DNA of 62,994 nucleotides, filler included, from Globobulimina sp. (lineage: Eukaryota): the NCBI GenBank assembly GCA_003354225.1. It is 43 parts of 43 records of this genome, joined end to end, with 100 filler letters (N's around TTAATTAATTAA, not from the genome) between each part and the next. Parts side by side here need not be neighbours in the genome. Positions count along the whole stretch, not along the records: positions 2,937 to 4,304 come from PIVH01017829.1; 42 more parts are not named here. The stretch is one strand, 5' to 3'. Under the pieces are notes generated by a model. That model ran no database searches, had not been told where the DNA came from, and was given only the letters and a program-made list of their open reading frames with translations. Positions 2,837 to 29,806 of this stretch are shown here, one piece after another. Position 1 is the first letter of the stretch, and every line of letters starts with the position of its first letter. The translations under genes and the position numbers were made by a program.

Positions 2837-2937
2837 NNNNNNNNNNNNNNNNNNNNNNNNNNNNNNNNNNNNNNNNNNNNTTAATTAATTAANNNNNNNN
2901 NNNNNNNNNNNNNNNNNNNNNNNNNNNNNNNNNNNNA

Positions 2938-3159
2938 TATTCACAACTTATTAGAATAGCACGTATATGTAACAATCTAAATGATTTCGAAATCAGAGTT
3001 AAACAACTTGTAGATACATTGTCAAAGAATGGCTATAAAAAAAGCAATATGTCCAATACATTCTTCAAATTTGCGACAACATATAGTCCCTTGTTACTTA
3101 AATTCAAGCTAGATAACAAATTAAAAATAGCTAAATTTGGTAATAAACTCTTGAGCTAA
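2938..3159 (+). mobile_element. C-terminus (thumb/HTH) of a Penelope-like RT ending without a downstream GIY-YIG (Naiad/Chlamys-like layout)
   Basis: Manual translation YSQLIRIARICNNLNDFEIRVKQLVDTLSKNGY...KLLS*; absent from the ORF track. Confidence 0.8.
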
Positions 3160-3328
3160 CAGTTTGCCTAGATATGTGTTTTACTAGTTTACTCACCTTT
3201 GGGTGAGTGGTGCTAATTCATTACTAGCTTTCAAAGCTAGCGGTTTTATTTACTCACCACCAGGTGAGCGGTGCTAATATTGCATTACTTTTGTGTATTT
3301 AATTTTGGTTATGCCTATGGCGTTGCTT

Positions 3329-3527
3329 AGCGCACTTACTTTAAAACGCGCACAACAGTCTTTGCAATTTTTTCTTGGTCTGTAATTTTCCTCAGCAGAA
3401 AACAAAGCATGGTTGCAAATAATAAGCACAGCGCGCTTACTTTAAAACGCGCACAATAGTCTTTGCAATTTTTTCTTGGTCTGTAATTTTCCTCAGCAGA
3501 AAACAAAGCATGGTTGCAAATAATAAG
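3329..3527 (+). repeat. Near-perfect 98-nt direct repeat x2 (3329-3426, 3430-3527)
   Basis: agcgc(a/g)cttactttaaaacgcgcacaa...ggttgcaaataataag duplicated with 2 differences. Confidence 0.95.
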
Positions 3528-4404
3528 AAGTTAAATAATCGAGTCTAGTCACAGACTGGGTAAATTTTATTAGTTATTTGCCGTCAGACCTAAAAATTAG
3601 ATTTTATTAACCTCAGATAATAATTCTGAAAAGTTTTTCGCCGAAACCAAATTCATTATTTTAATTTCTGTCTGATTGTCAAAGTATGGCTCCACCAGTA
3701 GGAAACAAACGGAATAGACGTGAAGATAATGAAGAAGATGATCAACAAAATAGTTCGACGATTCAAGTAAAACATTTTAGTGTTCATATTATACTATAAA
3801 TATGTACAAAAAATTTTTTGCATAATAAATGGTTAGTGGTTTTCCAGCTTTTAAACAAACTTTTAAACTCTCCTCCATAATTGCTATTTTGGTTAACACA
3901 ATTTTCCTTTTTGTAAAATGTTTTGTAAAAAGTTTTTATAAAAAATTTTTTTAAGAGTAGAATAGGGACGTTTTGGTTAAAAAGTATTTTATAACTTTCT
4001 GATCTAATCATGAGCTTCGATGCTATTGGTAGTCTACTGACGAGGTCCAACCAATTGCATACTGAATTTGGTCTAGATTTGGGACCGAAACCTAATTCAG
4101 ATAGGTAGAAACTTTAATCTATTTTCGTAATATCATATAATCTACTAAAAAATTTTTGGTTATAAGTCTAGTTTATTGCACTGATACATTTGTATCTATT
4201 CATTTTCACTTTGTAAATATTATACTACATACCTGTACTTATACAGACTTACACCTGGCACCTGCACTTATATAGCAGTGACAGTGAGTAATTTTGAATT
4301 CATANNNNNNNNNNNNNNNNNNNNNNNNNNNNNNNNNNNNNNNNNNNNTTAATTAATTAANNNNNNNNNNNNNNNNNNNNNNNNNNNNNNNNNNNNNNNN
4401 NNNN

Positions 4405-29354: not shown

Positions 29355-29700
29355 GATGAAAATTTAAATAGAAAAGAAAGAAATTTTGTGGTGATGCAAC
29401 ACCACCAAACGCAAACGGGCGAGATCCCCAGAACTAATTATTTGAAGGCAAAGAGGGCGAGATCTCCAGAACTATATCCAAGCAGATGGATTAAAATAAA
29501 CAATTTTAAAAAATAATTAGTTCTGGGGATCTCGCCCGTTTGCGTTTGGTGGTGTTGCATCACCACAAAATTTCTTTCTTTTCTATTTAAATTTTCATCC
29601 GTTTGGTGGTGGCCTATCACCACAAAATTCCTTCTTTTTCTATTCAAATTTTCGTCTGTTTGGTGGTGTGATATCACCACAAATCCGCCCTTTTCTATTC
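29355..29700. repeat. Perfect 89-bp inverted repeat (29355-29443 / 29511-29599) overlapping three 57-nt tandem units
   Basis: Direct comparison; each unit has a GGTGGTG..CACCAC hairpin. Confidence 0.9.
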
Positions 29701-29743
29701 TAACTCATACATTCCATAACATTCAACTCCATTCCACGATGTT

Positions 29744-29806
29744 TGGCTGTCGCCACAGGATTTGAACCTGTATCTTCTGGATGAATCCAGTGCTCTGCTT
29801 GAGCTT
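29744..29806 (-). pseudogene. tRNA-like relic or SINE head ending in CCA
   Basis: AGCTCAAGCAGAGC D-arm-like, CTGGA/TCCAG stem, ACAGG-TTCAAAT-CCTGT T-arm, then 7 nt + G + CCA; no 5' acceptor strand. Confidence 0.6.

Follow-up and report, generated by a model that had tools for sequence, protein, structure and literature searches.

A hairpin array following a Penelope-like reverse transcriptase ORF in Globobulimina sp.: a candidate set of cis-acting RNA sites

The ORF end and the features that follow it

The window, meaning the whole stretch of 62,994 nt of Globobulimina sp. DNA that was analyzed (positions 1-62994), consists of 43 unrelated pieces of 1367-1368 nt each, and pieces adjoining in the window are not neighbors in the genome. 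The pieces are separated by 100-nt linkers made of 44 N, TTAATTAATTAA, and 44 N. The array described here lies on the piece at 2937-4304 (1368 nt), where the visible context comprises 222 nt of ORF upstream and ~1 kb downstream (Table 1).

Table 1. Coordinates of the features on the piece carrying the hairpin array
Feature	Position	Strand	Description
RT ORF end	2938-3159	+	last 73 codons and TAA; 5' part cut by the start of the piece at 2937
Extra TTACTAG word	3181-3187	+	just 5' of unit 1
Hairpin 1	3189-3211	+	TTA-CTCACC-TTTG-GGTGAG-TGGT; stem 3192-3197/3202-3207, loop TTTG
GCTAAT word	3212-3217	+	after hairpin 1
Hairpin 2	3221-3244	+	TTA-CTAGCT-TTCAA-AGCTAG-CGGT
Hairpin 3	3250-3272	+	TTA-CTCACC-ACCA-GGTGAG-CGGT; stem 3253-3258/3263-3268, loop ACCA
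GCTAAT word	3273-3278	+	after hairpin 3
Fourth unit, degenerate	3285-3309	+	TTACT...GGT frame kept, stem absent
101-nt tandem repeat, two copies	3329-3527	+	downstream of the array; 98% identity

Translation placed the TAA stop of the ORF at 3157-3159, and no in-frame TGA occurs in the visible 73 codons. The 73-residue ORF end (P0001) had no Pfam match at E<=10, but phmmer searches against 1.84 billion representatives returned 158 matches at E<=1e-3, the best at 8.1e-22 with 69% identity. When 15 of these matches were scanned with Pfam, RVT_1 and/or GIY-YIG was found in eight. The curated cut-off was passed for RVT_1 by P0065 only and for GIY-YIG by P0065, P0084, and P0143, while P0020, P0060, P0075, and P0082 gave weak RVT_1 matches. 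Not fitting a Penelope-like element (PLE) among the 15 were P0004, with MBG repeats, and P0033 and P0064, with UCH only; four others had no family. Judged by homology, the ORF end is the C-terminus of a PLE reverse transcriptase (RT), of which the window shows just the part that follows the thumb.

Domain order in the longer relatives was compared with the point at which the ORF stops. In P0084 and P0143, GIY-YIG is N-terminal and RVT_1 C-terminal, and the protein stops 6 and 2 residues past the match, respectively. In P0065 the order is RVT_1, match, and C-terminal GIY-YIG, with 202 residues beyond the stop point of our ORF end. Three further proteins (P0075, P0077, and P0106) begin within the conserved stretch that trails GIY-YIG in P0084 and P0143, and in all five of the long RT-terminal relatives fetched, the RT is preceded by GIY-YIG or by the WIR..L..A.P.GLNDKI motif that trails this domain. 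Among the matches listed that reach query residue 65, 17 of 25 end no more than 9 residues later, and the ORF stop falls 2-7 residues from the ends of P0002, P0003, P0011, P0012, P0084, P0106, and P0143. Because the long relatives stop at the same point, the ORF ends where N-terminal-EN PLEs end. An ORF that terminates with the RT and has no C-terminal GIY-YIG fits either the N-terminal-EN (Naiad/Chlamys) or the endonuclease-less (Athena/Coprina) type, the N-terminal-EN layout being seen in relatives of 35-38% identity and the upstream part of this ORF lying outside the window. Signs of a pseudo-LTR (pLTR), as partly tandem PLE copies would produce, were also looked for, and within the 1368-nt piece there was neither a second RT end nor a repeat of 3160-3330.

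Two observations on the relatives stand apart from this assignment. In P0033 and P0064, a ubiquitin C-terminal hydrolase (UCH) domain follows a region resembling the RT C-terminus with no RVT_1 match, and these proteins may be domesticated or fused PLE fragments. The N-terminal GIY-YIG of the PLE protein P0075 is truncated, and the public entry of this protein assigns it to a bacterial metagenome-assembled genome, probably through misbinning of a eukaryotic contig.

The original prediction had placed three TTACT-stem-loop-AGYGGT units directly behind the stop codon of a Penelope-like RT, and this held to the nucleotide: the units start at 3189, 3221, and 3250, unit 1 beginning 30 nt after the TAA, and the GCTAAT word said to be common to units 1 and 3 follows both. 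As RNA, hairpin 1 extends to nine pairs (3189-3197 with 3202-3210) through an A-U and two U-G pairs. Hairpin 2 has a stem of 3224-3230/3234-3240 (CTAGCTT/AAGCTAG) around the loop TCA and is followed by GGTTTTATTT, while the 5' arm and loop of hairpin 3 are A/C-rich (ACTCACCACCA). Together with the degenerate fourth unit, the spacings between units are 32, 29, and 35 nt. Neither this fourth unit nor the TTACTAG word at 3181 had been part of the original prediction.

The pattern TTACT-N4-(loop 4-5)-N4-AGYGGT occurs three times in the 62,994 nt of the window where 0.06 occurrences are expected, and none of 100 shuffles reached three or more; the units are not independent draws in this statistic, since 1 and 3 are copies of 83% identity. 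Likewise, TTACT occurs seven times in 3175-3445 against an expectation of 0.27, although these words are not independent either and two duplications are involved. Perfect hairpins of at least 6 bp with at least three G/C per arm gave 34 rows, overlapping registers included, in ~58.7 kb, and 4 of the 34 belong to the three hairpins of the array. The array is thus a real, non-random structure in the 3' UTR of an RT-terminal PLE.

Downstream, each copy of the 101-nt repeat opens with a small G/C hairpin that holds TTACT in its loop (e.g., 3431-3452). Each copy also contains, on the minus strand only, CTGAGGA-N14-GAAA, which fits the relaxed "HHR core" pattern given by Craig et al. (PMC8557442). 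Contigs of run X1, possibly the run from which the window itself derives, hold this locus and, at equal depth, a second version of 3125-3800 that is 12-16% diverged and may be an allele, a paralogue, or the copy of a related strain. It is colinear into the downstream flank, skips 120 nt, and has one 101-nt unit where the locus has two. This version keeps the 5' arm of hairpin 2 intact and has a changed loop in that hairpin, most of the other differences not being itemized. Given that colinearity into the downstream flank, the insertion may be an old one that selection no longer maintains. The same run holds a third RT-end variant, which diverges at 3138 and has a predicted end like that of P0002. 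Further along the piece, two short ORF segments (3687-3767 and 4010-4105) start with ATG and end at GT donor-like sites (MAPPVGNKRNRREDNEEDDQQ... and MSFDAIGSLLTRSNQ...); in the diverged version, the segment 3687-3767 is no better conserved than its flanks. The two segments may be host exons or may belong to the element.

Folding and comparison of the units

Folded singly as RNA, hairpins 1, 2, and 3 reached -12.9, -7.1, and -9.1 kcal/mol with z of -4.2, -3.4, and -2.0, respectively, and the fourth unit reached -1.1 kcal/mol with z of 0.08. Over the 126-nt region, z was -3.2 for the plus and -5.0 for the minus strand. There is little difference between the strands in how well they fold, and on the minus strand hairpins 2 and 3 are each closed by an additional G-U pair. 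At equilibrium, the RNA of the region prefers a nested fold, with the sequences of hairpins 1 and 3 paired to each other and hairpin 2 capping the structure (-37.5 versus -28.4 kcal/mol), leaving the local stems 1 and 3 a probability of 0.07. With DNA parameters, the three local hairpins are optimal on both strands.

Units 1 and 3 are direct repeats at a distance of 61 nt, and the repeated stretch includes the linker as far as CATTACT. The two units differ at 5 of 30 positions, namely four loop bases (TTTG versus ACCA) and one flank base, and at none of the 12 stem bases. Were the changes independent, at least four of them would fall in the loop with a chance of 1.8e-4; a swap of the whole 4-nt loop may, however, have been one mutational event and not four. 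Hairpin 2 shares with hairpins 1 and 3 the flanks and the first two and the fifth stem pairs, and differs from them by three pairs changed on both sides (C-G to A-U, A-U to G-C, and C-G to U-A). Units 2 and 4 are almost unalignable between their conserved flanks.

The original prediction had read these units as a selected, covarying motif, and that reading is weakly supported. Pairing is kept in hairpin 2 through its three double-sided changes, but the stems of hairpins 1 and 3 are identical, so that there is no covariation between these two. In the control, 21 of 500 column shuffles equaled the observed score, whereas slid controls fell to 29-52% paired; the comparison takes in three units within one locus, of which hairpin 2 versus 1 and 3 is a single contrast. 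For this one locus, the pattern of changes is suggestive of selection on the array.

Known RNA families and other copies

No relevant Rfam match (hammerhead, other ribozyme, or SECIS) was obtained at E<=10 for 2937-3700 on both strands, and at gathering thresholds over the whole window no match fell in the array piece. No tRNA-like gene was found for the array region. The suspicion that the array was neither a hammerhead nor a SECIS element was borne out on both counts: no Rfam hammerhead at E<=10 and no core string on the sense strand for the former, no Rfam SECIS at E<=10 and no ATGA in 3160-3330 for the latter. By these Rfam searches, the array belongs to no known RNA family. A scan for bacterial-type promoters and terminators is uninformative for a eukaryote.

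Other copies of the array were sought at several scales. None was found in the other 42 pieces, where all-against-all blastn gave only the 101-nt self-repeat, and an HMM of the relatives matched only the RT ORF end among the 938 ORFs of the window. A viral contig collection yielded 138 pattern stretches and a genome contig collection 158, with no relative and no occurrence of the motif in either. A word-indexed protein search at near length gave no match. The alignment of relatives A3 led to five distant metagenome PLE loci of 35-48% identity. The motif was present in none of the four with a stop, which at that identity are too distant to count as family members, nor did any of the four have a G/C-containing hairpin of at least 6 bp in the 400 nt after the stop.

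Our literature search found no description of PLEs in foraminifera, nor of hairpin arrays in PLE UTRs. In the portions of Craig et al. 2021 (PMC8557442) drawn on here, no foraminifer or other rhizarian appears among the PLEs. By eye, the 3' UTRs of the Naiad_Bfor and Naiad_Mley consensus sequences contain scattered hairpins and no array of like units.

Elsewhere in the window, 29355-29720 and 29755-29805 hold an inverted repeat followed by 57-nt tandem units, each with a GTGGTG-N6-CACCAC hairpin, and next to these lies, on the minus strand, a 33.7-bit partial match to a tRNA. The inverted repeat and the units may be a SINE- or MITE-like element.

Possible roles of the array

We consider that the array may be a cis-acting set of 3'-UTR stem-loops for RT binding or internal initiation, a tentative reading to which we give a probability of roughly one in three (0.35). 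The stem-loops, which recur every ~30 nt and are framed by constant TTACT and GGT, would be cis-acting sites on the sense RNA, at which the element's own RT would either bind or begin cDNA synthesis internally. Alternative starts one unit apart could then produce the 30-40-nt "tail" heterogeneity typical of PLE ends. That the array works at the RNA level, that it does so on the sense strand, and that it serves RT recognition or initiation are points we infer by analogy.

The analogy is with the one PLE that has been studied in vitro, PAc, a member of the Poseidon clade from Anolis carolinensis (Frangieh et al. 2024, PMC11167929). The cDNA of PAc begins inside an AC-rich stem-loop at two adjacent sites whose interval is the 30-40-bp "tail"; the required RNA lies within the initial 172 nt of coding sequence, at the pLTR-ORF junction, and hammerhead cleavage is dispensable for insertion in vitro (PMC11167929). 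Both systems are PLEs with a small stem-loop in the template RNA, and PAc sites ~30-40 nt apart compare with array spacings of 29-35 nt. RT binding or start-site choice is proposed on the strength of this likeness, with which both the spacing and, in hairpin 3, the A/C-rich arm and loop agree. The likening concerns structure and spacing, and the two differ in place and type: PAc is a C-terminal-EN element whose site is within the ORF, 111-118 nt in, at the pLTR-ORF junction, whereas the array hairpins lie 30-110 nt behind the stop of an RT-terminal ORF.

Other retroelements offer partial parallels. The hammerhead motifs of canonical and EN-less PLEs, which lie in the pLTR or at the 3' end (Cervera and de la Pena 2014, as cited in PMC8557442), are likewise structured terminal non-coding RNA, but the array consists of simple hairpins with no three-way junction and no core on the sense strand. 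The 3'-UTR stem-loops that the RT of stringent-type LINEs recognizes belong to another class of retroelement, and in the part of PMC4176376 drawn on are single terminal stem-loops by a repeat tail, unlike the three stem-loops with constant flanks seen here. In the same portions of PMC8557442, the SECIS of selenoprotein-encoding Naiad elements is the sole 3' RNA signal described for N-terminal-EN PLEs. It too is a structured RNA close behind the stop (about 1-21 nt) of such a PLE; the array, however, has no ATGA/GA quartet, no Rfam SECIS match, and no in-frame TGA in the 73 codons.

Among protists, the Physarum Pp1 and Pp2 consensus sequences (PMC8557442 supplement, compared by eye) are PLEs with an RT-terminal ORF and a G/C hairpin at the ORF end, which between Pp1 and Pp2 is apparently one compensated pair apart. 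Their pLTRs, again by eye, contain further small hairpins, one with a TTACT loop, and then a GT donor-like string. They differ from the array in having other sequences and, by eye, no like units with shared flanks.

In favor of RT sites, the motif statistics and the folding support real hairpins, the changes between units 1 and 3 sit in the loop apart from one flank base, and hairpin 2 keeps its pairing between constant flanks. Counted on the same side are the excess of TTACT words, the likeness of the ORF end to PLE RTs, and the reported lack of canonical hammerheads in N-terminal-EN PLEs (PMC8557442). Against RT sites stand the single locus, the preference of the RNA for the nested fold, the equal folding of both strands, the lack of a stem in the fourth unit, the location of the required PAc RNA within the ORF, the possible age of the insertion, and the lack of the motif in the four distant metagenome PLE relatives with a stop in the locus. 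A wider version of the proposal, in which hammerhead-less protist PLEs would generally use stem-loop arrays with TTACT and GGT flanks behind the RT stop as a multi-site landing and start pad for the RT, with the unit spacing setting the 30-40-nt "tail", is speculative and in our view improbable.

An unlikely but serious alternative is that the array has no RNA function and is a neutral by-product, a ~61-nt unit with two short palindromes having been duplicated in the UTR of a decaying element. Its perfect stems would then persist through recent duplication, or through correction of quasi-palindromes by template switching in replication. The 83% identity of units 1 and 3 as direct repeats 61 nt apart, with the linker to CATTACT duplicated as well, is what such a history would leave, and the 101-nt tandem duplication just downstream argues that the region is prone to duplication. 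Also in its favor are the fourth unit, in which no stem is left, the 12-16% diverged twin of the locus, the failure to find another copy or conservation in the collections searched, and the 3'-end tandem repeats annotated for several Chlamys families in the metadata sheet of PMC8557442. Uniform decay after one duplication, however, does not predict that changes would be confined to the loop, as those between units 1 and 3 are but for one flank base, and the interiors of units 2 and 4 are almost unalignable while their flanks are conserved. Nor does hairpin 2, which has the flanks of hairpins 1 and 3, share their stem sequence.

Other explanations fare less well. The donor-like strings GGTGAGT and CAGGTGAGC sit in hairpin 3' arms, and GGTGAGT (3203-3209) and CAG/GTGAGC (3261-3269) could be 5' splice donors of a 5'-UTR intron that in PLEs begins within the pLTR, whose sequence is that of the 3' UTR; the complementary arms would mask or regulate the donors. 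Both strings fit the standard eukaryotic donor consensus, and GCTAAT and TTACT resemble branch-point words. Yet any hairpin with a GGTGAG arm resembles a donor by construction, hairpin 2 has none, and no downstream PLE body or acceptor was recognized, the HMM having matched only the ORF end among the 938 window ORFs. Transcription start and intron donor do lie in the pLTR of Penelope and Chlamys-3_cRei in the portions of PMC8557442 drawn on, and the ends of Physarum Pp1 and Pp2 carry AAG/GTAA and AAG/GTGAGT after hairpins (supplement, by eye), but we hold a splicing role to be a poor prospect. We also doubt strongly that the array is a module for RNA processing, 3'-end formation, or stability, serving as a hammerhead substitute, a terminator, or a protective structure. 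Such a module would suit the position, where canonical PLEs carry structured RNA (3' UTR or pLTR), the T-run after hairpin 2, and an N-terminal-EN clade (Naiad/Chlamys) that has no canonical hammerheads in the portions of PMC8557442 used here. Set against it are the missing catalytic-core strings on the sense strand (CTGAGGA-N14-GAAA being confined to the minus strand of the 101-nt repeat), the lack of any Rfam ribozyme at E<=10, and the dispensability of hammerhead cleavage for PAc insertion in vitro (PMC11167929), by which a substitute may not be required. Very little speaks for an unrelated MITE- or SINE-like small insertion behind the ORF, an alternative that the original prediction had kept in view. 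Taken together, the three palindromes make up an imperfect inverted repeat of 17 nt, but this arises because two copies of the same palindrome are present, no target-site duplication or terminal repeats flank 3181-3312, and no further copy turned up in the other 42 pieces, the viral contigs, or the genome contigs. It is just as hard to credit the array as the telomere-annealing 3' end of an EN-less PLE, given that it has no tandem C-rich repeats.

PLE RTs are the closest relatives of telomerase, and their RNA recognition and choice of start site are known for one animal element only, while for the large, hammerhead-less clade of N-terminal-EN PLEs no terminal RNA signal besides SECIS has been described. 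If the array is only a scar of duplication, the finding is an ordinary one. If the proposal of RT sites is true, a compact, repeated hairpin by the stop codon would provide a defined RNA for work on RT binding, internal initiation, and the origin of the PLE tail, and if the start-pad version is true as well, it would represent a new class of retroelement cis-signal, a functional counterpart of the PAc stem-loop.
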